Assembly (NCBI RefSeq): GCF_011745625.1
Contig: NW_027191475.1
Location: 1 to 64,000 of the forward strand
Source of the DNA: Cladosporium halotolerans
Lineage: Eukaryota
Reading direction: 5' to 3'
Length of the DNA: 64,000 bases
Below are positions 1,190-59,800 of the stretch, one piece after another. The notes under the pieces were generated by a model. It had not been told where the DNA came from, did not search any database, and worked only from the letters and a program-made list of their open reading frames with translations. The stretch's first letter is position 1, and every line of letters begins with the position of its first letter. The position numbers and the translations under genes are program-made.

Positions 1190-4002
1190 TCAGCGAAGAC
1201 CAACCTCGCACCCCCCCTCAACCCCCCTGCACGCCGCGCCCTCCACCGCATCGCCATTGATAGACGGAATAGCGCTGCTCTGCAGACTCTGCGTGTCGGC
1301 TGTGAGAGGCGGCGGGGTGTTCGCGACGGAAGCGTAGTGGCTTGCGAACGGCGTGGGGAGAGCGAGGGAGAAGGACGCGGGCTGGTGTTGTTGGTGGGGC
1401 GGGACGCCGAAGCGGCGCATGCGGCTTTCGATCTGGGGGAGTGTCAGTAATGGGTTACGGGGATGCAAGGAGTGGGCTGGCTTACTGCGGCGATTTGTTT
1501 GCCGCATCCGTGGCGTTTGGCGTGGGCGATTGCGACGGCGAGGTGACTGGTGAAGAAGAGGTAGTCTTGGTAGCAGAGCTTGTCGAGGAGCTTTTCTGTG
1601 ACGGTGGGTCAGTATTTACGAATGAAAGAGATTCATGGAAAGACTTACGAATCACGTAATTGCCGAAGTTGTCCTTGATCATAGACACAAGGGTTGTATC
1701 ACCCTCCGAGCGGCGTTGATCAGCCGCCGTCAGGTCGTTGACAACGTTACGCCTCCAGGTATCATCCGAGTATTCAATGCACTTCTCAACGACGTTGCTG
1801 GCGAATTTGTGCTTGCTGTAACCCTCCAGACCTTGAAGTACGATCCGGAAGACGTGGTTCTTGTCCATGGGACTGCCTTTCTGGACCACGTGCTGGACAA
1901 CGTAGTTTCCGTATTGGTCCGCGATCATGCCTTGCTGCATACTGTCATGTAGCTCAGACAGAATTCTCGGTTTCGAGGGAAACCACTCCGGCCGTTCGAG
2001 ACAGCGTTGTATGACTCGGCAGCCGTACGGGTGTAGGCTGAGATGTTGGACCTGACCAAGGAATGCCTGGTAGATGAAGCCGATGGTCTCGGGCGCGCAT
2101 CGCTCGATAGCCTTTTGGATGACGTGGTTGCCGTTCTGATCCTTGACGCACTTCAAGACATGGTTCTCGAGCTCACCGACCAGAGCGGCTTGCTGTTCGA
2201 CCAGGATGTGCTCCAGCGCTTTCTGCACGACTCGGCAGCCGTACATTTGCAAGCTCAGACACAGCACCTGGCCACGCATCTTGTTCGCCAGCATCTTTTT
2301 GTGGTCCTGATGACCATGATCGAAGAACTTCTGGATCACATAGTTTCCGAACACGTCTTGCATCAGCGGAATGGCATTCGGTTCAATCTCGCGAAAGACA
2401 CGTTCCTTCTCGTCCGAGTTGGCGGTCTCAAGCTTGGTCTGAATGAAGCGTGACCCATACTGGTCACCGGCAAATTCTGCGATGTGGTCGAAAATGTCGC
2501 TGAGCTCCCAGCGCTTGTTGTTCTTCCCGGCATTTTTGAAGTCGTATAGCTTTGTGCTCTGAACGCCGTCGCTCACAAAGTCTTCGCGGCTAGACATTCC
2601 GTTTTCTAGCCCGCCGATTCCCATAGGATACATCGACAGATATGACGCCGGAAGACCAGGTTGAATGCCGTTTGGAAGTGCGTATGGGTTGAGGAGCGCT
2701 GCAGGATACGCCGACCTCAAAGCCAGCATATGCTGCACACGCGGGTCCAGAAGAGCTTGCTGTTCAGACAATCCGCCCAACTCCCTTGATAGTGCGATCT
2801 CGTCGGCGTACGCTGGCCATTCGTTTTGCGACTTCACGCCATTTGGGAAATCGTAAGCTCTCGGAGACGCTCCACTAGTCGTGAATTGTTGTGTCGGACG
2901 AAAATCGGCGGTCGCAGGAGACTGGCCAAATCGTATGGTTGAGAAGCGAGGAAAAGCAGGCGGTTGTGTTGATCCGTAATCGTCTGAGGCCAGATAGCTC
3001 AAGCTCAGTGTATCGTTCTCTTCGAGGTTTTGCTTTTCATTTGATGGCAAAGAGTTGAACCTGGAGGCAACTTGGGCCGTCCTTTGACTCATCTGACCAG
3101 ACCAAGGCTCGGATGCCTTCCGTAGCGCGGCCGCATGGCCATCTTGGCCTAGACTCATCTGTCCAAATTGGGGTAGTAGCTGATCAACCCCATTGTGGAA
3201 TGAATTTGCGTTGCGCTGAGAAGAGAGCGAGTGTGTGCGAGTGCTGCTGGGAGTGAATCGCGTGTTTGATGTTGGCTCCGGGAAGGTGGGCTCCTGGTTG
3301 GAGTGTCTGGAAGGCGGCTGACTGGGGTCCCGGGAAGTCGCAGCGCTCATCGACCAGATCGATTTTCTCGTCTCAGTTGGCGAGACCGAAGCGCGTGGGC
3401 TATCAACAGGAGGTGCAGTTGCATTGAACTTTGTGTAGAGTGTAGGCGGGTCGCTCTCGTGGCCTGGGAATGCGCTTGATGCCATCCGGGATTTGAAGTC
3501 GTTGCTTGTCAGGTTGATGACCGGCGGGCGTGCTGATGTGGGCGAGATACTCTCGGTCGGAGATATGCCAGGCTGTTGCGAGCCAACCGTGGCATTTGGT
3601 CGAGTATGCGCCAGGTCGGAGTAACGATTGCTGGAGAACGACCTGTTGTTAGACTCTGCTCGAAAGCCCCAAGTCGAATTTGTTGGGTGAGAGCCCTCCA
3701 ACAGCACGCCCGATCCTGACTTCTTGTCTTCAGTTAGCTGTCTGGCGGAACCATGTGCGCCAAAGTCGCGCAGCTTGCTGGCATCGGTCTTGGTGTCTCC
3801 GTTGCCCAAGCCACTGTTAAAGGCCCAGATGTTCTTCTCCCACGGCGATGTCAGAGAGCTCGTGGTGCTGTTCTTGGATGTATCGGGAAAGGCTGCGCTG
3901 GAGACGTTGGTGAAAGAGTGTGACTGGGAGAAGGGAGGGATGTCAGCGAACGAGGTGTCAGACGATAAGCGCACACGGACGTACATTGCTGGAGAAAGCC
4001 AT
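1190..4002 (-). CDS. PUF3: Pumilio-family RNA-binding protein Puf3; exons 4002-3985, 3923-1649, 1595-1486, 1432-1190
   Basis: Eight PUF repeats with recognition motifs SRFIQ, NYVIQ, CRVVQ, NHVIQ, CRVIQ, NYVVQ, SNVVE, NYVIQ. Long S/P-rich N-terminus. Three GT-AG introns with CTGAC branch sites keep the frame. The start codon is inferred. Confidence 0.92.
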
Positions 4003-9311: not shown

Positions 9312-10324
9312 CTACTCAGTGTCGCCCGCCCCGCCACTGCCATTGCCACTGCCACTGCCACCAGCCCCGCCCGCCGCCGCCGCCTTCGCCTCGCCCTCGA
9401 CCCCCGTGACACCCGCCTTCTGCGCCGCCTTCTTCCACAGCTCGACCTCGCCCCAGGCGCGCTGGCACTCGCTCTTGAGCTTGTCGCAGCTGGAGCTCAG
9501 CTCGGCGATGGCCTGCTCCGTCAGCAGCTTCTCCAGCGTCCACTTCTCGATGTTCTGCGTCTCGTTCTCCTTCAGCTGCGTGATGAACTGCACGGCGCGC
9601 GCCAGGATGCTGCCTTTGTTCTTCTCGCACCCGGGCACGATTTTGGCGAGCTCGTTGATGCCTTCGTTGATCGTTTCGCGGCGGCGGCGTTCGACTGGGA
9701 GGGGTTGTTAGTGGGGGTTTCTGGGGAGGGGGTGCTTGAGGCGGCAAACTTACCTTCCTTGTGATTGTCTCTGCGGACCTTGTGCCACTCGTCAGAGCCT
9801 ACTGTGGGTTTGCTGCCACCGGGCGTGGCTTGAGCGCCTGAAGGCGAGGATGCATCGCCGTTTGGTGCGTTTACTTCCATGTCACCGAAGCTAGCGGATC
9901 GCTGGACGGGAGTTTGATCGACAGGTGTGCCCGAGACGCGGTCACCGCCCTCAGTAGGTTGGTGCATGAAAGTGTTCTCTGTAGGCTGCGGGACCGTCAT
10001 GGTGTGATACTGCGCCAGGGCTGCAGTCGCCGTGTCGCTCGCGCTCGACACCACGCCCTGGGTATGTGAATGTGACCGCTGGTGGCTCGAGTTCTGCTGA
10101 TCTGAGTGCTCGTGCTGTGGTGCTGGCTGGTCGTCTGCGATCGCATTGTCGTTGTGTGAGTGCGAGAGGACGGTGGAGAAGTCGATTTGGTTGTCGTCGT
10201 CTTCCGTGTGGTGCAGGTACTGCTGCTCGAACTCCGATGTGTCCTGGCCCAGCCCGGGCGCGGCGCGCATGTCGGGCATGTCTTGCGAGTCTCTTTTGCG
10301 CTTTTGGGGTGATGCGACGGACAT
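9312..10324 (-). CDS. CBF1: bHLH-zipper transcription factor, centromere-binding factor 1 family; intron 9695-9753
   Basis: GSDEWHKVRRDNHKE|VERRRRETINEGINELAKIVPGCEKNKGSILARAVQFITQLKENETQNIEKWTLEKLLTEQAIAELS is the Cbf1 bHLH-ZIP. GTAAGT...CTAAC...CAG intron. Confidence 0.92.
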
Positions 10325-26704: not shown

Positions 26705-28291
26705 CTAGAAGAAAGCGGCCATGCCGATGGCACAGACAATGAGCGCGATCGGAGCGGACTTGGCCACACCAGCGTTGACAGTCTGCTCTGCGGGTGCAGC
26801 AGGAGTGGTACCACTCGGACCCACGGGTGAGGTCTCGTTGCCAGCTGGGAAGGGAGCCTCAGGGGTGGCTGCGGGAGCGCTCGGGACAGGACTGGACGCC
26901 ATGGTCGTCGGGACGGGAGCGACAGGAGTGGCATAAGAGGACTGCTCAGGAGCCGGCGGTGCCTCGGGAGAAACAGGGGTTGACGGTGCAGGCGGAGCTG
27001 CAGTCGGGGCCTCCGGCGCAGGAGGGGCGGCAGGGGGGGCTTCTGGCGCAGGAGGGGCTTCCGGCGACTTGGGAGTCTCGGGCGCAGGAGGGGCGGCAGG
27101 GGGGGCTTCTGGCGCGGGAGGGGCTTCCGGCGACTTGGGAGTCTCGGGCGCAGGAGGAGCAGCAGGCGGGGCCTCGGGAGATTTGGGAGTCTCCGGGGCG
27201 GGAGGAGCCTCAGGCGCAGGAGGGTAGACGGGAGGCGCTTCAGGAGCGGGAGGAGCCTGGGTCGGGGCCTCGGGCATGACAGGCGCTACCGGCGTAGTCT
27301 CCTCGGGCTTGGTCTTGGTGACACTGACAGCAGTGGAGTAGGTCGAGGTGAGAGTGGAGTAGGTCATGTATGTCGAGGTTTTCTCCTCAGTGCCGGATGT
27401 GATGACCGAGGTGGCCGGGCAGTAGGTCGTGTACACAGTAGTGTCGATAGTGACGGTGGTGTGCTCAGGAGGGCTAGTTGGTGCCACTGGGATGGGAGTG
27501 GTGCTATTTGGGCTTGGGTAAGGCACCGGGTGAGTAGGCTCGACGGGCTTGGTAGGCTTGACGGGCTTGGTAGGCTTGACGGGCTTGGTAGGCTCGACGG
27601 GTTTTGTAGGCTCGACGGGCTTCGTAGGCTCGACAGGCTTGGTTGGGTACTCGGTCGGCTTCTCAGGCTCGACGGGCTTGGTGGGCTCGACAGGCTTGGT
27701 GGGCTCGACAGGCTTGGAAGGCTTGCTGGGGTACTCGGTCGGCTTCTCAGGCTCGACGGGCTTGGTGGGCTCACTCGGGTACTCAGAGGGCTTCCATGGC
27801 TTGCTAGGGTACTCGGTCGGCTTCTCAGGCTCGACGGGCTTGGTGGGCTCGACAGGCTTGGAAGGCTTGCTGGGGTACTCGGTCGGCTTCTCAGGCTCGA
27901 CGGGCTTGGTGGGCTCGCTCGGGTACTCAGAGGGCTTCCATGGCTTGCTGGGGTACTCGGTCGGCTTCTCAGGCTCAACAGGCACGCTGATCGAGGACGA
28001 GGTGGTCGGCTCGATCGGGTGGGTGTAAATCACCGGAGTGGTAGAGGTATAAGGAACGGGAGCGGTTGGCTCGACGGGGAGCGAAGGCTCGTAGCCATCC
28101 TTGGAGGAGTACTTCGGAGGTTCGACGGAGGTAGTCTTTTCACCGTAGCCTTGCGGTTTCTCTCCCCAAGAGTTCCCACCGCCGTAACCAGCAGGCTTAT
28201 CATCGTAGGAAGGCGGCGCACCGTGGTCGTCACCGGCAATTGCAACGGCCACCGCCGCCAGGCTGAGGATGGCAACCTTTGAAAGCATCAT
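26705..28291 (-). CDS. Secreted repetitive Pro-rich, probably GPI-anchored, cell wall protein
   Basis: Signal peptide MMLSKVAILSLAAVAVA; PTKPVE/PEKPTEYPSKP repeats; TTVYTTYCP flocculin-type motif; APEAPP repeats; C-terminal NAG + hydrophobic GPI signal. Confidence 0.88.
   Translation of the reverse strand: MMLSKVAILSLAAVAVAIAGDDHGAPPSYDDKPAGYGGGNSWGEKPQGYGEKTTSVEPPKYSSKDGYEPSLPVEPTAPVPYTSTTPVIYTHPIEPTTSSSISVPVEPEKPTEYPSKPWKPSEYPSEPTKPVEPEKPTEYPSKPSKPVEPTKPVEPEKPTEYPSKPWKPSEYPSEPTKPVEPEKPTEYPSKPSKPVEPTKPVEPTKPVEPEKPTEYPTKPVEPTKPVEPTKPVEPTKPVKPTKPVKPTKPVEPTHPVPYPSPNSTTPIPVAPTSPPEHTTVTIDTTVYTTYCPATSVITSGTEEKTSTYMTYSTLTSTYSTAVSVTKTKPEETTPVAPVMPEAPTQAPPAPEAPPVYPPAPEAPPAPETPKSPEAPPAAPPAPETPKSPEAPPAPEAPPAAPPAPETPKSPEAPPAPEAPPAAPPAPEAPTAAPPAPSTPVSPEAPPAPEQSSYATPVAPVPTTMASSPVPSAPAATPEAPFPAGNETSPVGPSGTTPAAPAEQTVNAGVAKSAPIALIVCAIGMAAFF
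26995..27250 (-). repeat. Coding minisatellite: 66-bp (PETPKSPEAPPAPEAPPAAPPA) units
   Basis: ccggcgacttgggagtctcgggcgcaggagg at 27061 and 27127. Confidence 0.9.
27540..27980 (-). repeat. Coding minisatellite: 18-bp PTKPVE units nested in a 144-bp (48 aa) duplication
   Basis: gggtactcagagggcttccatggcttgct recurs 144 bp apart (~27777 and ~27921); many gggcttggt(g/a)ggctcgac units. Confidence 0.9.
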
Positions 28292-30975
28292 ATGCTTATG
28301 CGTAAGTGTCGGGCACGTGATCGTTTTGGATCAAGTCCCACGATGATTCAGAAGAGCGAGAGTAAATGAGACCGTAACGAAAGAGTCTCGAATCAAAGTG
28401 AGGCGGGTAATTTCTCACTGACCAACCTGCCTTGCAGGCGACCTTGATATATCTTTCGAGAGCTTCCCTCTCGAACACCATCACGTCAAGCTAATGCACG
28501 TCCCAGCCCGCGTGTACAACAATGCAACGTATAGGCGGGAAGGCAAAGGTACCTAGAAACGTGACGTGGTAGGCTGTAGGGTTCAATAGCGAGAAACGCT
28601 GCTGCATTGGTCGAGCCAATCGCTTTGTCAGGAATGAAGTTAGGTCAACAACTAAGGCCACCCAGGAAGCTATCCCGGTCAAGCGGCCCAGCGGGACGAG
28701 AGAACAGGGTTCGAAAGCCATCGTTCCACAAACGGGCAGGCTGTTGCTTGGGGGCTGGTGCTTGGGAGACGGGCGCAGGTCAAGGCCACCAGCCAGGAAC
28801 AGGAAAGGTCTGGCTTCGATGGTCGCCATGAGAGACCATGCAATGGAAGGATTTACAGCTCGAAAAAAGGTTTGTTGTCCAGCGAATTCGCCGTTACTCT
28901 GTCACGGTGGCTGGCAAGAGCACGGTGTAGGCGCCTCGCCCCTAGACACGCGCGCTCGTGTGACCTGATCGCCCAGCATCTCGTTTCCGAAAGAAGAGAA
29001 AGCGCAAAGTGGAGGCCGACGTTTTCTCGCCAGAGCCGAAGGCACAAGGCCCGCCGGGGCATCCGCAAAACCCGCAAAACCCCAGAAACTAGCGCGTTGA
29101 ATCGAGCGGAGAGGTGGTCAGGAATAGTAATCGGACAGCTCCGCAGATCGCAGTGGACCGTTCACCTTCTGGCGCCGACCGATACATAGACGCCGTTGGC
29201 CTTCGCCTTGTGGGTGAAGACTACTGTACAACGCTCAGCACCCGTCTCTGAGGACGTTGTCACTTCATGCTAGATGCTTGCCATCCGAGAGCTGGCAAAG
29301 GTTGTCAAAGTGCTTACCAGCGAGCCGCCCTTGCGCGTCGCTCACGCAAACCTAGGAAGCGGTTGCCGAGAGTAACTGCTCGCAAGGTTCCCTGGCAGCT
29401 GCAGGTCCCGGGGTTGGTCGGTTGTTCGCCCGCTCGTCTGGCTGCAGGAACACGAGACCAAGGAAGCCAATCACGCTAGTTGTCGCGAGGAAGCCATCGG
29501 TGCGTTTCCCCAGACTACCAGAATAATATCCGGATGCAACCGATCAGGCCCGCGGCTTGCGATCCGGCATGGCATTCCAAATCCGTATTTTGCAATGAAC
29601 TCGTGAAGGTTCGCTATGATCCAACAATTCGCGTCGAATTCTTGGGTGATTTTCGCAGCTGCAAATTGAACCTGCCTGCTATGGGAAGGTAAGCTGTCCC
29701 AGAGCTCGGAGCTGTTACTGTATGTGCTTATGTGGTTGAAGAGCTTGCATCGCAGCCCCGCACGATGGGCAGGGGACAGAAACTCTAACACACTTCAATG
29801 GCCCTCGGTGCCAATCGCCAGCACAATTTAGCGAGTCGTGGTACTTTCTAGACGTGGGGACATCGGCGATGGTACAGTTCTGATCCCGACCCAGAGAGTA
29901 ATGCCCAATGAGGCGATCGCTTCCCCCTAGGCAAGAACAATTAATATGTTGAGAACTCCAAGCAATAGCGATGGCGCGATGTGCAAATGCAATGGCGCAT
30001 GGTAATCTTCGTTCGAACGGCTTGCTTGTAAGCAGACCGCAAAGCAGCATAGTCCCGACTGCTCACGATTCGCTATCAGACGCAACAACCCATCAGCTTT
30101 AGACTCAGCTTCACTGGCTGAGTGTCATAAGCATCTACAATTCCGTTGAGCACACTGCTTACGTCAAGTTTCAAGCCGCAGCTGCCAGGCTTCTTCCCAT
30201 GGTCATCATGAAGTCAAAAGGTGCCTCGCCGTTTCAGATCATGAGCTTACTGCGTACGAACAGCGAAAGCTTCACTGTCAGCCGCGATCCGCCCAACAGC
30301 CAACTCATGCCTCTTGTTGGCCACTGAACGTGTGTTTTGTCCGGATGCCTGCTTCGGATCGACGAATGGCAACCGCGAACAACATGACGCATAGATGGAT
30401 GTCTGTGAGATCCTGATCTTGCCGAGTCCATAGCACGTGCAGCCATCTTGTAGTGGCTGTACCCTCGTCGCAACCAATGGCGTATCCTCTATCTATTTCT
30501 TTGGCTTGGATTGTAACAATACCGCCCTGCGCAAAGACATTCATTGAATTCGCTGCATTGATCGAATTGACGGAGATGTGACCCAAGCCCAGAAGTTGCG
30601 GCGGTTCTCCCAGTGAGTGTGCGGGTACGAGGATTAGCTTACAGTAGTCTGGGTGGCACTGGACGGATGCCTCGGCGCAATAGTATTTGCGAGTCACAGT
30701 ATGATGAAGCCAGATGTTCCTAGTGATATGGGTTGTATTCGTCAAAGTGTTGGACGTGATAGTTGTGAGTGACTGTGAAGGAAGCTGAAGGTCGGCCACT
30801 GGTGCAATTTTTCCGAACTTCGAGAAACAGCGCGTCGCTGGACCTCACGCTTTGACATCAAGACATCACGACCTCGCTAACCATCATATCACCGTTTCAA
30901 CAGGATGAACAATGGTCCACAGAGTTCTGCATGATTAATGAACATCCGTAACTTTGGAAAAAAGGCCTTTTGAGA

Positions 30976-48091: not shown

Positions 48092-49786
48092 TCATCCACA
48101 AACCATTCCCTCCTTAGGCACTTCCACCTTCTCAGCCTCCTTCCTCTCCCCCTCCCCAACCTTCACCTCCTCCGCCCTCCCCCCAGGCGGCAACCCCACC
48201 TCCCTCGCCTGCTCCTTCCCCGCCTGCTCCTTGCCCGCCTCCAACTTCGCCAAATCCCTCTTACTCAACTGAATGCTCCCCTTCTCCATCGCCTCCCTCG
48301 GCAACGGCCGCACCTTCGCCTGACACACCCAAAACGGCCTCCGGCACCTCTTCACCGCCCCATCGCTGCTCAGCGCCTCCTCCTCAAGCCCCACGCCCGC
48401 CAGCGCCTCCGCCTCCGCGACCTCGTACGCCTCAGGGTGCGCGGCGTAGTGCTGCAGCCCGGCCCGCACGGCGCCCTCGACGAGCGAGAGCACGTGCTCG
48501 TACGCGCCCATGTCCCCGCCTTTGCAGCGCGCCAGCGCGTCGCGCACGTCGGTGTGCTCGGTCACGAGCGCGCGCAGCATGTGGAAGAGGTGCGCTTGCA
48601 TGGCGCTGAAGTTGGCGTCGCGCCCCCGCTGGGGGGCGGAGGGGCCGCGTTTTTGCTTCTTGGGGGCGGGCGCGGTGTCGGTTTCGGGCGCTTTGCGCTT
48701 GCTGGGGTCTTGGAGGGTTTCTGTCGCTGTTTCTGTTCGTGTTTCTGCTTGTGTGGAGGGAGCGGGTGTTGGTTCGGGCGCGGGGTCTGAAGGGAGGTAG
48801 AGCGGTGCGCGGGCCGGCGGCGTCTGGCTCAGGACGTGCTCGTAGATGATGTCGAGGTAGCGGCGGAGGACTGCGTCGGCACGGTAGCCGCCCTGGCCGC
48901 TGCGGCCGCGCCAGTACTCTCTGCCTTCTTCGCCGACGGGCGGCGGCGGCGCGAAGATGGACGGGTCGTAGAGGTTGCCTTCGGCGCTCATGATGCCGTC
49001 GACGCCCGTGGCGTCCATGCACTTCTGCAGGTCGCCGTGCTGCAGCACGTTGCCGTTCGCGAACATGACCGTTTCCGCCGGCAGGTTGTCGCGCAGGTAC
49101 CGGATCACGCTCCAGTCCGCCAGCCCCGTCCAGTGGCCCTTCTGCTCCCGCTGTCGTCCGTGGACGGTGAGGATGCTCGCGCCGGCGCTGAGCACCATCT
49201 TCGCGTACTCCAGCGTCTTCTCCCGCGTCTCCAGCACGCGGATCTTCGCCGTCACGGGGATGTCCAGGTTCAGGTGCAGCTTGTTGATCAGCCGGTAGAT
49301 CAGGTCCCAGTCTTCTTGCAGGAAGGCGCCGTAGTTCCCTCGCTTCGCGATGCCTTGGGGGCAGCCCAAGTTCAAGTCCACAGCGTCGCAGTGGGGCTGT
49401 ACGATTTTGGCAGCCGCCAGCAGCGCATCCGGGTCGTTCGCGCAGAACTGCATGAACAGCGGCCTGTCGATCTTGGGGTTTCCGTCCAGATGCGGCTCCG
49501 CCCCTTCGCTCAGCGCTTTCTCTTTCTCTGCGTCCGCGGGCTGCGGTTGTCCGTCGGGGCCCTTCATGGGCTTGAAGTGCTCGTTGCGGTAGGCGGGCTT
49601 TTCTGAGAATAGTTTGGCGTGCATCATGGGCGAGTAGGCTAGGACTGATGTTCGCTGCTCGGCGGGCATGAATGAGCGTGTGAGGAGCCGCCAGGCGAAC
49701 TCGCTTTGGTCGACCATGGGCGCGACAATGTATTTGGGCGAGCCGATCGACTCGTAGAATGCGCGGCCGCGCAGTTTGGGCGCCAT
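48092..49786 (-). CDS. DUS1: tRNA-dihydrouridine(16/17) synthase
   Basis: YIVAPMVDQSEFAWRLL, DRPLFMQFCANDP, AVDLNLGCPQGIAKRGNYGAFL, VTAKIR, LTVHGR, FANGNV, GIMSAEGNLYDP. The start is taken at MAPKLRG. Confidence 0.96.
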   Translation of the reverse strand: MAPKLRGRAFYESIGSPKYIVAPMVDQSEFAWRLLTRSFMPAEQRTSVLAYSPMMHAKLFSEKPAYRNEHFKPMKGPDGQPQPADAEKEKALSEGAEPHLDGNPKIDRPLFMQFCANDPDALLAAAKIVQPHCDAVDLNLGCPQGIAKRGNYGAFLQEDWDLIYRLINKLHLNLDIPVTAKIRVLETREKTLEYAKMVLSAGASILTVHGRQREQKGHWTGLADWSVIRYLRDNLPAETVMFANGNVLQHGDLQKCMDATGVDGIMSAEGNLYDPSIFAPPPPVGEEGREYWRGRSGQGGYRADAVLRRYLDIIYEHVLSQTPPARAPLYLPSDPAPEPTPAPSTQAETRTETATETLQDPSKRKAPETDTAPAPKKQKRGPSAPQRGRDANFSAMQAHLFHMLRALVTEHTDVRDALARCKGGDMGAYEHVLSLVEGAVRAGLQHYAAHPEAYEVAEAEALAGVGLEEEALSSDGAVKRCRRPFWVCQAKVRPLPREAMEKGSIQLSKRDLAKLEAGKEQAGKEQAREVGLPPGGRAEEVKVGEGERKEAEKVEVPKEGMVCG

Positions 49787-50559
49787 GGTCGATTGGAGGC
49801 GCGTGGCAGTCCGGGTGGGTTGGTTGGCTTGGAAGTTGGTGAGAGGATTTTTCTGCCGTGTGCAAGCGCTCCAATGGTATAGCTGGCGCAGCATATGGTG
49901 TGGAGATCGGTTTTGCAGGGAAGGACTGAATGGATCTTGGATGGTGGATTCAAAGTTCACAAGAAAGTCCAAAAGATCGGCAACGGACATGCAGCGCGAG
50001 TCATGCGGCGGCATCCTCGATCCTTCATCCCAATCACGCCCCTACTTTCGAAGCCACAGCAATGCTAATAAGTACGGTCGCTTGCCTTCTTGCAGGGCAG
50101 TTTCAGCGTTACCTCCGCCATTGGTACATTCGCGCCAAAACATGTTGACGAAAAGCGCTGCATCATGCTGGAGCTCCTGAATGGGACTTATGCCTATCAC
50201 ATCGATCAAAAACGCGATCCTTTGGCTGTTCCTATCCGTCCATTTCTCTATTCGCACAACTGATACTGGGCTGTAGAATTGTACCACAATGGGACTACCA
50301 GAGACTGGTCATCAAGTGCACCGACTCCCGTCGGGTCGAATCAAGAATCTACCTTTTGATTGCAGTCTGTGAAATGGCCCTGGCATCTAGGTCAACAGTA
50401 GTTCTGGATCATGAAACACGCATCCAACAAGGCAACGCTTGGATGAACTGGAATCTCAGCGGGTACGCTACACTCACAAGCCCCGCTCCCTTCGCCATCG
50501 CCCCTAAGCCCCCTACATCTCGTCCTCTTCCTCGCTCTCGGCGGGCACAGGCCGACGAA

Positions 50560-51320
50560 CACGACCTTCTAAGGTAACCGTGCCATGTATGACAAAGGAT
50601 GACAAGGGTCAAGATGATAACCCTGTCGGCTGTAGTGAGCTCGCGGTGTCGGGGCGACCAAGAGTTGGAATGCCTGATGCCTGATATCATGACGCCGGTG
50701 TCTGGAACTGCTTCAAAGTCCGAAGTCGACGACAGCGGATAACAAAACAGGTGTTTGCAGCCAATCCTGCCGTGAAGGCGCTCAGCTTCTGTGAAAAGAC
50801 GCGCTTGACCCCGGTCATAGCCACATCCTCGCCAAATATCCGCGACGGCTACATCGACTCCCTAAAACCAAATATCGCCCACTGAGGCAATTCTCGATTT
50901 CTCTCCATTGCTCGCTCTCCCACCCGCCCGACACTCTTGTTTGTGAACGAACAGCTGTACCGCCGAACGGCAGTCCTGGCGCAAATAATCCTGGAGTTCG
51001 TTGCGCGATGAAAATTCGCAGCTGCAGCTCGTGCAGGTAACGGCTGGTGAGACTGCCTGGCTGTCGATTCCTGGGATGTTGACGTGGAAGCTACAGTCGT
51101 CTTCGGTGGGCTCCTCCGCCTCTGCAGCATCGTCGTGGTCCCGCGGATTCAAGGTCCCCAACAGCAAACACGACGACACGATTATCTGCCAGGCCGGCAT
51201 ATTCTGGCTTACAGCTACCAAAGTTCCGAAACCAGTGACTGCAACTACGCCTCCGACCAAGACGTCGGCCGACAAATTCACAAGAGCTGCTTAGCGCTTC
51301 GACTTCGATTGAACCTATGA
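50560..51320 (-). pseudogene. Decayed relic with a C2H2/C2HC-like zinc knuckle, possibly Ty3/Gypsy gag-pol derived
   Basis: CTSCSCEFSSRNELQDYLRQDC at 50970-51035 after an acidic stretch. The frame is broken by stops on both sides. Confidence 0.35.
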
Positions 51321-52214
51321 AGTCTAGCCACGACTACTAATGAAATTTGGTGTTTCTCTATATATAGGATTAGCCAGGTCGTCATGGCCAGGACTCTCTG
51401 TCGTCGTTGAACTTCCTCCGCGTACCGCGCACCTTGGCTGCTGGGCCGCGAGGCGACGGTACGCCCGTCACATCCTCAGGTTGCCTGGTTCCAAATGCAA
51501 CACCAGTGCGCTACGAGTAGCTCTGCTAGCTCCGCGGTCGCCGAGTCGACCTTCGTTTGCGGGAGTGCGTACCGGACCCCTAAGTCGGTTTCTAATCGAC
51601 TACGTTCCCTAGGCCATTACTTCCGGCAGCATGACTCGACAGTGGCTCGGTCCCGGCCTCGTTCTTTTGCACGCGACGCTACACCGCACCCGTCGTCGCA
51701 CTCCTCGCCGTTGTGCCCCTTTCTGACCCCAACGCCGACTTAATCGACGACTTCGATGCGTATGAGGACGAGGAGGTCGACGAGAACGAGCCGCGGCGAA
51801 TACGAGTCTGCGAAGCTGCCTCGTCAGTGCCTGCAGTCGCCGCCGACTACGCATGTCGAACCCCAGTCCTGCCGAGATCTCACTTCTGGCCAGCCTCCTG
51901 ACTCACAATGAGCCCGCCCTGACCCTACGCCTAGACCGCGCTCCTAGGTCGAACCACCAGCCGCCTTCAGCTATGGAGATGGAAGATCTGGAGGGACCTC
52001 AGGATAACGTGATGTCGCCGTCCGAGATGGCGCACCGCCGTCGCGCTGGCCTGACCCCGGCTTCACTTCTGGCCCCGCCCGTCTCCCGCGGCACGTGTCC
52101 GGAGAGACTTCGTCCGATGCTAGATATGGCTTAGGAGGTTTTGATTCTGGGACTTGAAGATGGTTCCGATGAGTTGCCATGAGAGCACAAAGCTTCTTCA
52201 AGGAGTGCGGCACC

Positions 52215-52847
52215 TGTTACGGAACGTTCTAGCTTGGCAGCTTAGCTTGCTAGATAGCCGCGCCCTCTGGTAGCCACTTACAGATAGGTGGAGCGAAATT
52301 TGGGCCAGGATCGATTGACGATTGATAGGCTGATTGATTATGCCCACCTCCGACCAGAGGATCTGGCGTAGTACGAGAGTCCTAGCACTTACATGATGGA
52401 CGAGCCGAGCTCGAAGAGGCCTATAGGTTAACGGTAGTCGCTAATCAGGCTAGCAATTCCTTAGAGACTAGGATTGGTAGCATCTTTGTCAAAGACAAGA
52501 CGCTATCCTATTCAACGTCCCCTTTGTGGCTCAGTCGCACACTCTATAAGTTGATCGGCAATTCATTCATGGACTGTTGCGAAACAACTCTATTATGTAG
52601 CCTACCTCACCTTAGCCTCCGCCTTAACTAAGCTAACCTTTCTTGGGACCCATTCGCAGACCACCGCGCTTTAAGATCGTAGACCCAAAGGCACTTATTC
52701 ACTTGTGACGCCTGGATACTAGCATTACCATCAATCTCCGGCTTCATCTTGTAAATGTAGTTTCTGACCAGGCAATCTCTCCATCACGACACACGACACT
52801 TCAAGTTGTGTGCTTGAGGCTTTCTTTTCTTACTGATTATGGTAACA
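52215..52847. mobile_element. Solo-LTR-like element
   Basis: Begins TGTTAC (52215) and ends GTAACA (52847), a perfect 6-bp inverted terminus. No ORFs; TpA-rich. Shares motifs with 1-299. An alternative right end is ACGACA at 52791/52798. Confidence 0.5.
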
Positions 52848-52909
52848 ACCAATCGACCAATGAATCGTCAACTCTTGCAAATCTGAACTACTAGTCTACA
52901 AACCTGTAC

Positions 52910-53090
52910 CAATCAATCGAACAATGGCCAAAACCCTTTGACTGGTTGATTGTGTCAATCTTGGCCTCCGGAGGCCTTCGATGTCATACCAATAGTCATC
53001 GCACTAGAAACAAGTGATCTCCACTGAGATACTTCTTGGTCTCTCTCAGTGGCACTTGTCCTACTCAATAGGCCAAGGTTGATGGTATGA
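52910..53090 (+). ncRNA. Candidate structured RNA / fold-back block
   Basis: Stems 52910-18/52944-52, 52955-67/53070-82, 53010-16/53053-59, 53021-29/53044-52, and crossing stem 52984-91/53083-90. Confidence 0.35.
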
Positions 53091-53236
53091 GCTTCATGAA
53101 CATTCAGACGGCGTCTTCTGGATCGGACTTAGAATCTATGGGAAGATCTGGTGCCTTCTCTCGCCCCGCAGTGCTGCTACCATCGAGTTCCGTGACAGAA
53201 AGCGGAGGGCACCCATTGAGTCAGTTTCAAGAGCCC

Positions 53237-54492
53237 CTCAATGGTAGCACTCCATTGTCTGAGACCGGTAGCAATGGGAGCAGCTTGAGGGGAGCGGAGA
53301 CGATGTCAGATCTACCGGAATTTCTCTGAGTCCAAACGAGCTGGATCGCTCTCTCTCGATGAATGCACCCCGTTTTCTCTTACTAGCAGCGACGGGAGCA
53401 CCTCCACGGAGACATAGATGCTCTCGAATCCACTGGGTTTTCTCTAAAGCTGCTGAACCAGATCATGATCTCTCGTCGGCGCTAATACGGCTTCTGTAAA
53501 TGGCAACGATGGAAGCACCTCCACGGGAATAGAGATGCTGTCATATTCCAATGAAATCTCTAAGTCCAACAAGCCAAATCGCTATCTCTCGATGGGTCCT
53601 ACACGCTTTCTGTAAATGGCAGCGATGGGAACACCTCCGAAGGGTACGGAGATACCGTCAAATCTGTTGAGATTTGGCTAAGTCGAATGAGCTGGACCGC
53701 TATCTCTCGATGGACCGAACACGATTTGTGTAACTGACAGCGATGGGAGCACCTCCGAAGGGAACGGAGATGCCGCCAAATCTGTTGAGATTTGGCTAAG
53801 TCGAACGAACTTCACCGTTATATCTCGATGGGAGCACCCTATATTCTGAGACCGTGAGCGATGATAGCACCGCCACGGGGATAGAGATACTGTCAGAATG
53901 CACCAGAATTCCTCTAAGTCAACGAATGAAATCGCCGTTCCTCAATGGGACCAGACCGGTTTCTGGGATTACAATACATGGTAGCACCTCCAAGGGCGGA
54001 AGAGAAAGCAGTTATCACATGCTGCGATGACTGAGATTTGAGATATTCTTTGGAGTATCTCGGCGGAGGCACCCCATTCTCTGAATTTGACAGCGATGTT
54101 AGCACCACCAAAGGGAGGGAGAGACCAAGTTTCACGTGGTAAATTGCCCTAAGAAAGGGAAATCTTGGAGCCTATCTCAAAGGAAGCACCCCAGTTTCTA
54201 AGACCGGCGGTGAGGGTAGCACCTCCAAAGCGCAGGGGAGTGTGCGTTTCACATGAAAAATGGCCATATTACAGAGGAAATATTGAGCATACCCAAAGAC
54301 AAGCACCTCGTTTTCTGGGACGGGCGCTGACGGTAGCACCTCCAGGGCGCGGGAGAGATGGATTATCACATGACAAAGCGTACAATACATTGAGTCTTTT
54401 TGAAGATTTCCTCCATGAGAGCACCCTGTTTTTTGAGACGGATGCCGATGGTAGCACCTCCAAGGAGAAAGAGAAGTCGGGTTTCACATGGA
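53237..54492. repeat. Tandem array of 11 diverged 116-118 bp units, each with two GATGG(T/G)AGCAC boxes
   Basis: Box-2 AGCAC(C)TCC-like cores at 53279, 53397, 53514, 53630, 53748, 53866, 53983, 54101, 54218, 54335, 54453. Confidence 0.9.
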
Positions 54493-54601
54493 AAACACAG
54501 GTGCACATGTCAAATTCAGAGAAACAGAAGGCTTCCCTGCCTTCACTTTATTAATCGCGAGCATATCTACGTGCTCGCTCGTCACATGCCTATCTACGCC
54601 C

Positions 54602-56862
54602 TCACTCGTCACGTTCATCTCCATCGTCTTCTCCGTCCTCACTCTCCTCGTCGTCATCCCTCGCCTTGCGCTTCTGGCCAGGCCGACCCAGCAACACCTG
54701 AGAGCGCACCCTCTGCGCCCACCCGCGACCCCTGCGCGTCGCCAGACCTTGCCCGCCGGTCTCGTGCCACTCCTTCCGCAGACGATCGACCAGGGATTGC
54801 ATCCCTGTCTCGCTGCGGGTGGCACCGAAGACGCGGTTGAACTCGAGCAGCAGGTCTGGGATCTGCTGCAGGGGCCGCTCCCCCTGGGTCTCGTTGACCC
54901 TCTCCATCACCCACTCCCTCTGCTCGCGCGTGTAATCCTCACGCGCGGTGGTGCGGAGCGCCGGCCACTTCCCGCGCTGGTGCGTCTGCTCTCTGTGCTT
55001 GTTGAGAGCAGCGACCTTGTTCGCGTCGCCCCAGTTCATGGTGGCGGCGTGCGTCCACTTCTTCCAGCCGCGCGCGCCGTAGCACCAGAACTTGTGCGGC
55101 TCGACCACATTGACGTGGCAACGAGAACGGTCGATGGTGATGCGCCGGGTGCCTTCGACGCGCGTCGCGTAGTTGGCGTTCTCGCCGCCGGTCTGGTCGT
55201 GTGGTCCACCAGGCTGCCCGTTGGTGGGGTCGTGTTGAAGGCCGCCCGTTGACTGGGCGGATGGAGGAGTGGGCGCGTCAAGCGCGCGAGGGCCAGCGGG
55301 CGTCGGCGTCGCAGGCTGGGGGGAGGAGACAACAACCATCTCGAAGAGTTGCTGTTGCGTTGCCGTTGTCATGAACGGCTGGTTCGGATCCATATCTCCA
55401 GGGATCCAGACAAGATCGATCTCTGCAGTGAGATCTTCGCGTCCCTCCGAGACGAACGACTCGCGAAGACGGTAGATCTGCTCAGCCGTCGGGTGCTCAG
55501 GCAGATCGCGACTGCCGCCAAAATTGATGGCGGCGAGACCCTCGTCGGAGTCTTCTCCTCCCTCGGTCAAGAACCGCCAGGTGCCATGTCCCTGCGGTTG
55601 TTCGATCGGGTTGCGGAACCTTCTATCGGGCCAGAACACAACGAAGGGGCCAGCGTTGGTGCCGAACCCGTGTGGAAGATCGCCTCGCATGCGTGCATTG
55701 TTGACCTCGTTGGGCGTGTTGAAGCCCAACTCAACGGCGCTTTGGTGATCGTAGGTCGGGTCGAGGAATGTAAGTCTCCCAAGGCCCCAAACATTGCGCG
55801 ACGGATTAACGATACCGCCATGCTCCCTCGCCTCTTCAACCTCGTCGGTGCGATCTCTAGGAACGCGACGGGGTGGTGAAGCCATCGGTGTCTGTTGAGG
55901 GAGAGGCAGCGCGTTAAGGTCCCCGATCACGGCTCTCGGGAGGTGAGTTTCACGCTGCGGGTGATTGCTTTCCCAGCGGTAAGACGCCAGCATTCTCTGC
56001 GGCGTGAACGAACCGGCGACCGATCCGTCGAATTCTTCCATCCATTCAATCTCCATCGCATCGGTCGTTGGGAGGTCCAGGCCGTTGATGTCGCGTCTCA
56101 GCTGTATATGGCCGCTTGGCAACACGACGATGACAGACTCCATGCCTTCGACGTTCGTAGCTGGAAAGCGACGTGCTAGATGCGGCTGCCTCTGCTCGAC
56201 ATTGCCCAACGTATACGCGCCGTCGTGGCCCGAGTTAGGGATTGGGTACGCAGGTGGAAAGGGATACATGTGGTCCAGATAGCCAGGGACTGGAACCACG
56301 GTACTGCTTGCCTGATTATCCAACCCAAGTACGCGAGATTCCGCGTCGTCCTCGAGCATCATAATATGACTCGGGCGTAGGAACCAGCAGGGAAGGCCAG
56401 AGTGACGAAGGTACTCTTGGTACCAGTCCTCGGTGTAAGGCGGCGGGTCGTTCGCATCTCCGTCGCGCCGAAATTGCCGAGTCCAGGTCCCGTCTGCGTG
56501 ACGAACGGCGACCATATCGGGCGGCGTGAGGAGGACAAACGACCTTTCGTGGCCGTTTTCGTCGCGGTATCGGCTCACGTAGCCCTCCGGGCGCCTACTT
56601 AGCTCCGCTAGATTACGGCGGTTTTGAAAGCGGCGGGCGTAAGCAACTAGCACCTCAGGGCTCTCGGTAAATCGCACTGTATCTGTTAGCGTTGATGACT
56701 ATCGAGGGGCCTTTGACACATACCCTCGAGGCCTTCAAGAAGATAGCCGAATGTTGCTTCCGGCGTAGCAGGCGGGCTGTCGTTAGCATTGCCTTGATTG
56801 TTATTGTCATTGTCGACTTGATCCCCGGTCGCACGGCTGGGTTGATCGTTCGGCGCCGCCAT
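54602..56862 (-). CDS. Orphan nuclear protein with C-terminal Myb/SANT- or HTH-like domain; intron 56677-56723
   Basis: Exon 1 MAAPNDQPS...YLLEGLE joins the 691-codon ORF via GTATGT...CTAAC...CAG. The C-terminus is MNWGDANKVAALNKHREQ...YTREQREWV...LLLEFNRVFGATRSETGMQSLVDRL, then KRKAR (NLS-like) and an acidic tail. Minus-strand AATAAA at 54547-54552. The domain call is by eye. Confidence 0.75.
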
Positions 56863-59800
56863 CTCAGCGCTGTCGCGGTTGCTGGTGTTTGTTGTACCGC
56901 ACAGGTTGCCGAGAGGGAGTCGAGGATCGTACATGCGCTGTCGGCACGACTACGTTGACAACAAAAGTGCAGCCACAGGGAGGGTGGACGTGACTGTGCG
57001 ATGTTGGCAAAGTATGTGGAGGTCGTGGTGCAGGCAGAGGAAAGTAGGCGGACGGAGGGTCGGTTGGGAGGTTGAACAACAAACGGACGCAGTTGGAAAG
57101 CACAGGACTCCTTGAGCACGATCGCGTGCTAGTGAATGACAACGGGAAAGCATCTGACTTCGGCTTGACAAGGTTCCGGACGGGTGAAGCGTTTGCCTCG
57201 TGAAAATTGTGAGTGAAGTCTGGCGCGTCCAGAGGACTTTATTCACTGTAACTCTAACCCTCAATCCACACGCGCTGTCAGCTGTAACAAGGTTGAACGA
57301 CGAAGCAGACTTACACGTATCGACTAGTTAATCGAATGCTGCTCAAGTTATAGCTAGCTTGCACATTTTTCAGGATACTGCAAGTGTAATAGACGGCTTG
57401 TACGTGTTGCAGGACACCACACATGATATAGCCAACTTGTATGTGTTGCTAGATGCTACACATGTTTGTCGCTAACTTGGAGATGTTAAGAACATCTTGT
57501 GGGTCTTCCAAGATGCTTTGGGACCGAATCTGACGTATAGGGATCTTCCATACATGCCTCAAGCAAATAGCATACACTTCCATGAGATGAAGTGGCGATG
57601 GCGGACTTAGACAAAGGGGCAAGCTGCGCTGAAACAAAGATCAAGAATGGGCTGCATTAGGACTTTCATGATTCACACCTCATGGAAGAGCGGTCTCGCG
57701 GCAAGTGCGAAATAGATGACAAACGCTTCACTACGGACTGTCAGCCAAATGGCGGATTGGGCGAACATAACTGAATAGTGGGGATGGGGCAAGTGTCAAC
57801 GCTACAACAAGCAATTTTGGCAGAATTGAGAAGTGAATATGTCCGCAGATACGCAGGCTTCCGCTCCAATTTGTGTGCCTTTCAGCTCGCAGTCAAGTGC
57901 TGAATCCATTACATGGTGAACAACAGCCTAGTTGGCCGCGAATGTGCGAAGGACGCCTCTCCCGGTGGTAGAGTGGATTGACGAACGTCCCATCTGTTCG
58001 AAGAGGTAGGGATTTGATAAACTCAAGCTTTGGGGCCGCATTTCAGATTGAGAAGGCGGTTTGCACAGTGTTTGTGATATAACAGCGTATTGTTCGTAGA
58101 TGTGAAGTCGAAATCCTCGGGGGAAGCTGAGAGCGATTGCCGAGCACTGACCGAGCGCGCGCGGACAACAACACCATCGTTGTCCCTAGCACCAGACCCC
58201 GCCCATGCCAGGAAAGCTACCAATATCCCCTGCTTCTGATGCATACATTAGGGCGGGGACCTCTTTGCAAATGCTCTTCCGAGCCAAAGACTGACGCGGA
58301 AGAGCTAGACGCGCTGGAATGTGAATTGAGTTTACTGTTGACAGTATGATCACAATGCAGGGAGGTTTTTCTCGGATTCCAAGACCTTGACGCTATGCAG
58401 CACGCGGTTTGCCGTTCCGATGCTGGCTCATCGCCATGAACCACGCTCAACCCTCAGCTTGCGACTGCCGTGGAAAGCCAGCGACAATGGAGAAAGACGC
58501 CCACATCAAAGCCACCGGTCCATCCGATAATGGATGCCCGTTCACGCTCAAGATACCAACAATTGTGTCAAGCCCCCTGATACATGCGAGCTGGGCTTCT
58601 ACGGCACCTCGTGAAGTGCTGAGCTGTAAGAAGAGCCTGGGAAACATTAAAGAGACGTATGAGCGTCGGAACATGCGGAACAATGGCCTGAGAGGACAAA
58701 GGTTATATTGAAGACGTTTTTGGCGACTCCAAGGTTCCTTCGTCCGCCCAAAGCAATCGCGTTTCGAGGCGCTGGGTTGGTATAACAAAGGCACAGTACG
58801 TTTCTTCCCCGCTGTGATGGTGGGACTTGATGTTTCAGCAAGATAGTCTCAAAGGTATCAGCTGTCTGTTGGTGAGGAAGGTGGAGGAAGAGCTTTGTAG
58901 TGGACGTGATTAACGTGCAGCCGCCTTTCACAGAGGCTTTAGAGATTGGAGCATAGCCGTACAGTTGTTGGAGCACAGATGTGTAGTTATTGGAGCTAAG
59001 AATCTGGGTGGTCATTCCGTGCTGAAGAGCCTCATATTGCTGAATGGCGTTGCAGAATCTACAAAATCGTAGGCATTCACAGCAAATTCATTCTGAACTC
59101 CTCGGATCGGCCGCAAACTCTGCGACGGCAGTTCAAGCTCAGTTTCACCGTTTTCAGGAGGTTACAGAGACTCAGGTTGCATACCAATATTACTTCCATC
59201 CGTTCCTGGCGGGTTTGGCCAGATCTTCCTCGGGTTCTAGCCGCCAAAGGTCGAAGGGCCCTCTCTGCGCCTTCTTTCCAGGCATTTGGGCAGCTTCTCG
59301 CTCGACCCCTCTTCTCCAAACCTCGTTCACAGCAATTGCGGTGCCAGAACACCGTGTATCAACACAGAGAACATGGAGGCTTAGCCAGCAGTTCATGCCT
59401 TCAAGGGGCTGTAAAATAGGTCACTGGCGAGCATTGCCTCTGAACCTCCCAAAGAAGAAACGAGGAAATTGATACTGACAAGTCAGTCACTCGACCTTTC
59501 TGCTCTCTGGCTACATTTACAGCCTTCTTGGCGTTGAACCACATGTAAGAGGTAAGGGTTTTCCAAGCGGCCGCAGTGGCTCTCATCACCGTACATCCGT
59601 CTCTCGACTCCACACCTATAGTGCGAACGAAGAGATCCAACCGAGAGCATTGCTCTGACCAATTTCGCTTCCCAGCGGCCCAGAATGCTGCTCCAATCAC
59701 CGGTCAGAGCGCTATCTATGCGTTGACAACGAAACTTCATTGCCACGGAGCTGCGGAAGCAAGGGAGCAAGTGGTACTACCGGCAAAAGCGAAACGAGGA

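Follow-up and report, generated by a model that had tools for sequence, protein, structure and literature searches.

Satellite DNA offers familiar examples of tandem units that vary except for a short conserved box (PMC3694981). The nematode satellites of that study carry CENP-B-box-like motifs of this kind, and the identity between satellites is 32-64%. The locus described here resembles them in that low-identity tandem non-coding units (here 42-86%) keep short motifs, in that there is more than one unit type, and in that rearrangements are found at unit junctions. Unlike those satellites, the array consists of only 12 units at one locus within the 64-kb window (the whole stretch of 64,000 nucleotides of Cladosporium halotolerans DNA that was analysed) and lies in gene-rich DNA. 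It is not a large centromeric array, and the likeness meant here is one of layout.

Among fungi, a tandem 126-bp enhancer from the cyp51 promoter of Penicillium digitatum was described by Hamamoto et al. (cited in PMC4336317). The array likewise has a fungal non-coding head-to-tail unit of ~120 bp, and the enhancer is thought to use repeated transcription-factor sites. Duplications of the cyp51 type are recent, near-identical and few; the promoter that holds them is known, and their influence on expression has been measured (PMC4336317). The array, by contrast, is old, with units 42-86% alike, and lies 3' of the nearest clear gene.

In a cursory survey of the Cladosporium literature on minisatellites and intergenic tandem repeats, and of the box 9-mers, no such array was found. 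Fungal Ser/Thr-rich surface proteins carry intragenic coding tandem repeats. Like these, the array has a unit length close to a multiple of three (117), and its translation in one frame is Ser/Thr/Gly-rich, but none of its frames remains open, stops are not avoided in its tails, and neither a codon signal nor a related protein was found.

The array is an old, non-coding tandem array that is confined to one lineage. Two explanations of it run through this paper. The one that we tentatively prefer, at somewhat less than even confidence, is a DNA-level row of phased docking motifs under length constraint. Its close rival, which we regard as a serious possibility, is an old minisatellite that was built by unit duplication, is neutral and functionless, and whose contrast between boxes and tails would be historical.

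Anatomy of the array

The array is ~1.4 kb long and is made up of 12 diverged units of ~117 bp, 11 of them direct and one inverted. The direct units span 53227-54518, and the inverted unit adjoins them on the left at ~53120-53230. With its head-to-tail units, it is a tandem repeat array of the minisatellite class. The direct units were anchored on the AGCA of box 2 (AACA once among the 11), which is found at 53279, 53397, 53514, 53630, 53748 and 53866 in units 1-6 and at 53983, 54101, 54218, 54335 and 54453 in units 7-11, and were aligned with MAFFT; a few gaps of 1-2 bp suffice for the alignment. These anchors reproduce exactly the periods given in the preliminary description of this DNA (118, 117, 116, 118, 118, 117, 118, 117, 117 and 118), six of the ten being, as it said, no multiples of 3.

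The motif CGATGG.AGCACC (13-15 bp) occurs twice per unit at a distance of 33 bp, or about three helical turns, with TTTCT between the two box copies and GAGA after both. The distance had been put forward for five named AGCA pairs, and each of these is exactly 33 bp apart; the accompanying claim that the length variation falls outside the box pair is borne out by the MAFFT alignment, which is gap-free between the boxes in 11 of the 11 units. In the 11-unit alignment, 12 columns are invariant and 13 nearly so, and 24 of these 25 lie in a core of ~68 bp that is followed by a tail of ~50 bp. The near-universal columns spell CTC, TTTCT, GA.GG.AGCACC.CC and GAGA. Box 1 has decayed in four of the 11 units (u3, u4, u5 and u7), which weakens the docking reading and is what a neutral array might show. 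Unit-to-unit identity ranges from 42 to 86%, the closest pair being units 4 and 5 (0.86).

When the window was searched with the 15-nt box-2 motif, allowing up to 3 mismatches, 11 matches were obtained, all of them within or abutting the array; shuffled sequences gave a mean of 1.74, and 0 of 100 shuffles reached 11. The nhmmer profile of the core recovered 11 forward copies with E values from 1e-18 to 1.3e-14 and, apart from the inverted unit, nothing below E 3.9 in the rest of the 64-kb window. Tandem Repeats Finder alone reports only 53492-53871, which is the best-preserved part. Since the box motif is absent elsewhere in the 64-kb window, there is no sign of a regulon there, and this counts against the docking reading.

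Two subfamilies with different tails

Alignment, profiles and tree divide the direct units into two subfamilies on the plus strand. Subfamily A comprises units 1-6 (53227-53930), located at 53227-53344, 53345-53461, 53462-53579, 53580-53695, 53696-53813 and 53814-53930. The order of elements in an A unit is CTC-GATGG-box 1, TTTCTG, box 2 (GATGG.AGCACCTCC), GAGA, and a tail with CTAAGTC. Subfamily B comprises units 7-11 (53931-54518), at 53931-54048, 54049-54165, 54166-54282, 54283-54400 and 54401-54518, and has the same core with another tail, which opens with TCAC[A/G]TG. The split is supported at 92/94 in the tree, where the inverted unit falls in A, and the terminal branches measure 0.06-0.55 changes per site. 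The tail motif CTAAGTC is present in at least six of the seven A-type units, if the inverted unit is counted, and TCAC[A/G]TG in five of the five B units; we take the latter to resemble an E-box half-site. Judged by their sequences, the A and B tails are unrelated to each other.

Averaged over alignment columns, pairwise identity among the 11 units reaches 0.615 for the core but 0.381 for the tail. Uniform divergence, which the preliminary description had named as a refutation, is thus not what the per-column comparison shows. Tail identity is 0.575 within units 1-6, 0.479 within units 7-11 and 0.30 between the subfamilies. The core values are nearly equal within (0.647 in units 1-6, 0.629 in units 7-11) and between them (0.603). 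About half of the contrast between core and tail thus arises because there are two subfamilies with unrelated tails. As a description, the claim that boxes and spacing persist while spacers diverge stands, but the contrast is much smaller within the subfamilies, and the "highly divergent spacer" needs qualifying: the tails are not structureless, being of two types, each with a conserved motif of its own.

These numbers bear on both explanations. That the contrast lies largely between subfamilies is in favour of the neutral one, according to which one unit would have gained a different tail and then been amplified into units 7-11, while in-register gene conversion would maintain only those parts that are still similar, namely the core. 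On such an account it would be a coincidence that the replacement tail of ~50 bp has the same length as the old one. The contrast itself, with 24 of the 25 conserved columns in the core, favours the docking reading, and the fact that each subfamily keeps its own tail motif speaks for constraint. A model of constrained plus neutral sites returned a constrained core fraction of 0.17 from the within-subfamily comparisons and 0.43 from those between subfamilies; the two values are inconsistent, which weakens the docking reading.

An inverted twelfth unit

A twelfth unit with an A-type tail lies on the minus strand at ~53120-53230, outside the stretch covered by the preliminary description, and stands head-to-head with unit 1. 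It is detected by nhmmer with the core profile at 53220-53156 (-) (E 7.6e-10) and with the unit profile at 53220-53146 (-) (E 6.4e-11), and it can be aligned to the direct units along its full length. Its tail matches those of units 1-6 at an identity of 0.39-0.50 and those of units 7-11 at 0.24-0.34. The inverted unit and unit 1 make up the two arms, ~100 bp each, of an imperfect palindrome. The 221 nt from 53120 to 53340 are predicted to form one long imperfect DNA hairpin (z -2.95), and 0 of 200 shuffles were equally stable.

At the right edge of the array there is a perfect 16-nt inverted repeat: its left arm (54077-54092, +) lies in the core of unit 8, its right arm (54508-54523, +) at the edge itself, the two are 100% complementary, and 415 nt separate them. 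Inverted pieces are thus found at both edges of the array, which is a point for the neutral explanation, under which template switching would have produced the inverted unit and the 16-nt fragment by accident. A further pair of 30 nt, 53019-53048 and 54039-54068, is 70% complementary; this was judged too weak for interpretation.

Neighbouring genes and syntenic loci

To the right of the array, at 54602-56698 (-), lies an open frame of 698 codons without a Pfam domain. Between the stop codon of this gene and the array's right end there are 84 bp, so that the array is 3' of the gene. Nineteen homologues were found; those that bear a name are hypothetical proteins from Cladosporium and Oleoguttula. 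Across 20 sequences the protein has 59 invariant columns. Two tandem 27-nt copies, 81% alike, span the gene's stop codon at 54561-54614.

To the left, a dihydrouridine synthase gene is located at 48092-50041 (-). The ~4.5 kb that reach leftward to this gene have little coding periodicity and are without a long frame; in the ~3 kb between the gene and the array (50100-53100) coding periodicity is almost nil. The stretch bordering the array that is free of clear genes is put at 1.5-4 kb. A possible small gene at 50862-51290 (-) has a GC content by codon position of 0.57/0.47/0.63; its two sub-threshold zinc-finger hints are the only Pfam signals in the 17 short frames left of the array, and the same frame continues after one stop in 50409-50861. 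Elsewhere in the window, 26984-27258 and 27534-27983 are occupied by strong tandem repeats, whose periods (18-144 bp) are without exception multiples of 3. The long frame at 26705-28330 (-) that holds them probably encodes a repeat protein.

Homologues of the 698-codon gene are encoded at 13 metagenome loci, two of which (L002 and L004) share the gene's upstream neighbours too and are the only ones shown to be syntenic. Neither blastn nor a motif scan, Tandem Repeats Finder or the profiles revealed an array downstream of the homologues at the 13 loci. At L002 and L004 its place, directly after the homologue, is taken by a small gene in convergent orientation on the minus strand (L002:5158-5652; L004:8652-9149, with a second copy at L004 ~9928-10212), and L009 has a relative of it at ~1779-2161 (-). 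The N-terminal part of the convergent gene is Ser/Thr/Asp-rich and partly repeated, and its conserved C-terminal part has a C2H2-like Cys/His pattern. Of this gene no trace was found in the window (best tblastn E 0.2). A resemblance by eye between the array and the 60-bp repeat, rich in Ser/Thr/Asp, of the L004 convergent gene was rejected as homology, the DNA and peptide profiles being negative. The absence of the array from the two syntenic distant loci is as expected of a neutral repeat and weakens the docking reading.

Unit number and indels in relatives

The array is present in relatives, for which the evidence consists of contigs, not reads, with indels judged in aligned pieces. X3 has 4 differences from the window and keeps the 11 units; X8 has 71 differences, contains the whole stretch in one contig and also keeps the 11 units. 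Relatives at ~3% divergence thus have all eleven, without small indels in the direct units. Records 2 and 4 of X13, with 33 and 18 differences, are gap-free. Record 3 of X13, which differs at 71 positions over 487 bp and at 42 over 421 bp (~12% diverged), is unalignable over 53191-53290 and 53358-53485, and two whole units are missing from it (net -117 twice). The comparison of unit number, which had been proposed as a check between strains, hence gives 11 units in the X3 and X8 contigs and a loss of two whole units in the X13 contig. This variation in unit number is in line with neutrality and weakens the docking reading.

In the X3, X8 and X13 contigs, as far as their pieces aligned, the 11 direct units are free of small indels. 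The small indels listed are at 52733, 52902 and 53019 in the left flank and at 53131, 53147 and 53225, all three within the inverted unit; a further one lies right of the array at 54567. That the direct units are without small indels while the inverted unit and the left flank carry six favours constraint and is difficult for the neutral explanation, but the argument is limited because the events are few and because they come from contigs rather than reads and from aligned pieces only.

The substitutions in X8 point the other way. At least 12 differences fall in 53227-53483 (among 40 of the 246 difference rows). Nine of these 12 listed differences are in the core, compared with 7.0 expected from core length, and 2 of the 12 strike columns that are conserved in 10-11 of the 11 units. 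Recent substitutions in X8 do not visibly spare the core. Differences that are not depleted there and that hit conserved columns are expected under neutrality, and they weaken the docking reading.

Possible length constraint or neutral array

Two further observations favour constraint. The unit length stays at 116-118 bp in spite of branches of 0.06-0.55 changes per site; at 0.2-0.55 changes per site the period of a neutral minisatellite should be lost, but 11 of the 11 direct units have kept it. In addition, three box positions of the degenerate type are invariant in 11 of the 11 units, which the neutral explanation does not lead one to expect. In the sole stop-free frame they are the last bases of the codons AGC, ACC and TCT, whereas second positions vary. 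Conservation is accordingly at the level of nucleotides, not of amino acids. The docking reading is also favoured because coding, structured RNA and RIP, which are treated below, were tested and are unsupported.

If the docking reading is right, the array would act as double-stranded DNA that presents phased sites for one or more sequence-specific DNA-binding proteins. Each unit would be a small module, in which short DNA motifs are held at fixed distances and joined to a subfamily-specific tail motif. Selection would then act on the motifs and their spacing and not on the remaining sequence, and the array may serve a neighbouring gene as an enhancer-, insulator- or terminator-like element. 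Anatomy, non-coding nature and constant length are shown here, as are the presence of the array and its varying unit number in relatives; protein binding, the gene affected and the existence of selection are inferred.

The preliminary description had gone further and taken the persistence of boxes and spacing as an indication of selection rather than a neutral minisatellite. On this point the evidence is divided. The fixed length, the invariant box positions and the indel-free direct units agree with it; the core of X8, which is not spared, and the variable unit number do not.

Possible mobile element or RNA

We consider it improbable that the array is part of a mobile element, as subterminal transposase-binding repeats or a foldback end, or that it is an RNA element in the 3' UTR of the neighbouring gene or in a long non-coding RNA. 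The subterminal regions of some DNA transposons contain short motifs in direct and inverted orientation, and the array, with motifs in both orientations, bears some likeness to them. The inverted unit at one edge and the 16-nt inverted fragment at the other also fit a foldback structure in outline, but these two pieces are direct relative to each other. No terminal inverted repeats bound the array, no transposase-like frame was found among the frames checked near it, and the profile finds no second copy within the 64-kb window. The adjacent 698-codon gene, moreover, has syntenic homologues in L002 and L004, which is not in favour of a mobile element.

The preliminary description had also suggested a search of the spacers against viral sequences. 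The idea of a foreign origin gained nothing from it: exact-match scans with three stretches gave 0 matches in IMG/VR, which is not a mycovirus library. The two-box pattern produced 52 single chance matches and no array in IMG/VR, where the best E value of the unit profile was 0.26. Compared with the rest of the 64-kb window, the tails gave only chance matches of 11-12 nt. A RIP signature was not seen in the array (TpA/ApT 0.57; (CpA+TpG)/(ApC+GpT) 1.35), and the transition/transversion ratio of the core is ~1.0, that of the tail 0.67.

In favour of an RNA element, 84 bp separate the array from the stop of the 698-codon gene, so that the last unit may be part of the 3' UTR. In X16, whose RNA origin is only a guess, 12 of 30 bins are covered, and two contigs of 151 nt are colinear with 53560-53834. 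Against an RNA element, there is no spliced joint in the contigs, and Rfam gave 0 matches at E <=1 in 50000-58000. A conserved fold was not found for the plus-strand units, on which the RNAalifold consensus amounts to -0.01 kcal/mol and 4 pairs; the minus strand was folded only as a whole.

Coding potential

The array might also be the relic of a coding repeat, but this we regard as quite improbable. On this view the plus strand would be what remains of a gene for a Ser/Thr/Gly-rich protein, built of 39-residue repeats with a core peptide L-D-G-S-T-P-F-S-E-T-G-S-D-G-S-T-S, containing a sub-repeat of 11 residues, and the gene would have died through 1-bp indels and stops. Several features make such a history conceivable. 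In one plus-strand frame the core of every unit is stop-free across 20 tested codons (220 codons in the 11 units), and in five units each of the 39 codons is open. The distances of 117 and 33 bp correspond to 39 and 11 codons, and an ATG frame begins at 53087. The strand is convergent with the 698-codon gene, and at the same place in L002 and L004 lies the convergent small gene with its Ser/Thr/Asp-rich N-terminal part.

The tests do not agree with this history. The absence of stops from the core frame is explained by column composition and goes no further than that (shuffle mean 0.12, P = 0.89), and the register of the frame shifts at six of the ten unit junctions. In the unit-wise frame the tails have 10 stops in 187 codons, compared with 7 and 6 in the other two frames. 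The core frame has a pN/pS of 0.70, the same as that of two antisense frames (0.70 and 0.72), and its identity by codon position, 0.73/0.58/0.59, is not a coding pattern. Three-base GC periodicity is present in the flanking genes and absent from the array. Across 53120-54518, 11-21 stops interrupt each of the six frames, as the preliminary description had noted in general terms, and its view of the array as non-coding is backed by stops, codon signal, GC periodicity and protein searches alike. It also argues against a coding relic that one unit is inverted, that the window lacks the conserved C-terminal domain of the convergent gene (best E 0.2), and that the array profiles do not match the convergent gene of L002 and L004. 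Units composed of an exon plus an intron can be dismissed, as no consistent set of GT..AG and branch site was seen by eye on either strand and the contigs of relatives have no intron-size joint inside units.

A profile of the 11 unit peptides was compared with 1.84 billion proteins and gave 10 matches at E <=1e-3. Two of these (P0020 and P0021) are the array's own frames in Logan contigs of close relatives, that is, open reading frames called at the same locus and not support for a coding relic. Among the remaining eight, three were inspected (P0022, P0025 and P0026), and all three are unrelated repeat proteins.

P0021 (80 aa) corresponds to the 80-codon ATG frame at 53087-53329 (+), which crosses the inverted unit and unit 1. 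It occurs in close relatives, in Logan contigs only, with 5 amino-acid differences in 80. The frame has no Pfam match and no codon periodicity, and is probably a chance frame. P0020 (129 aa), which comes from a relative and likewise from Logan contigs only, corresponds to the 133-codon frame at 54153-54554 (+) in units 9-11. This frame involves a change of register relative to the core peptide, is without a Pfam match, has a GC content by codon position of 0.54/0.46/0.46, and probably arose by chance as well. P0020 and P0021 illustrate how non-coding arrays can seed spurious protein entries in large databases.

Conclusions

Beyond the docking reading as such, the array might be a working cis-element of a kind undescribed in filamentous fungi, with modules of ~117 bp held in register; we consider this rather unlikely. 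In such an element, each module would contain two docking motifs of 13-15 bp three helical turns apart, and a third motif would differ between the two halves of the array. Substitutions and the gain or loss of whole units would be tolerated and small indels would not. The element would shape chromatin or transcription, as a boundary, terminator or long-range enhancer, between the 698-codon gene and the gene-poor stretch on its left.

If the array is neutral, it carries a caution, namely that a strong contrast between boxes and spacers can stem from two mixed unit types. If the constraint is real, the locus would offer a compact and testable array of phased docking sites in a common airborne mould.
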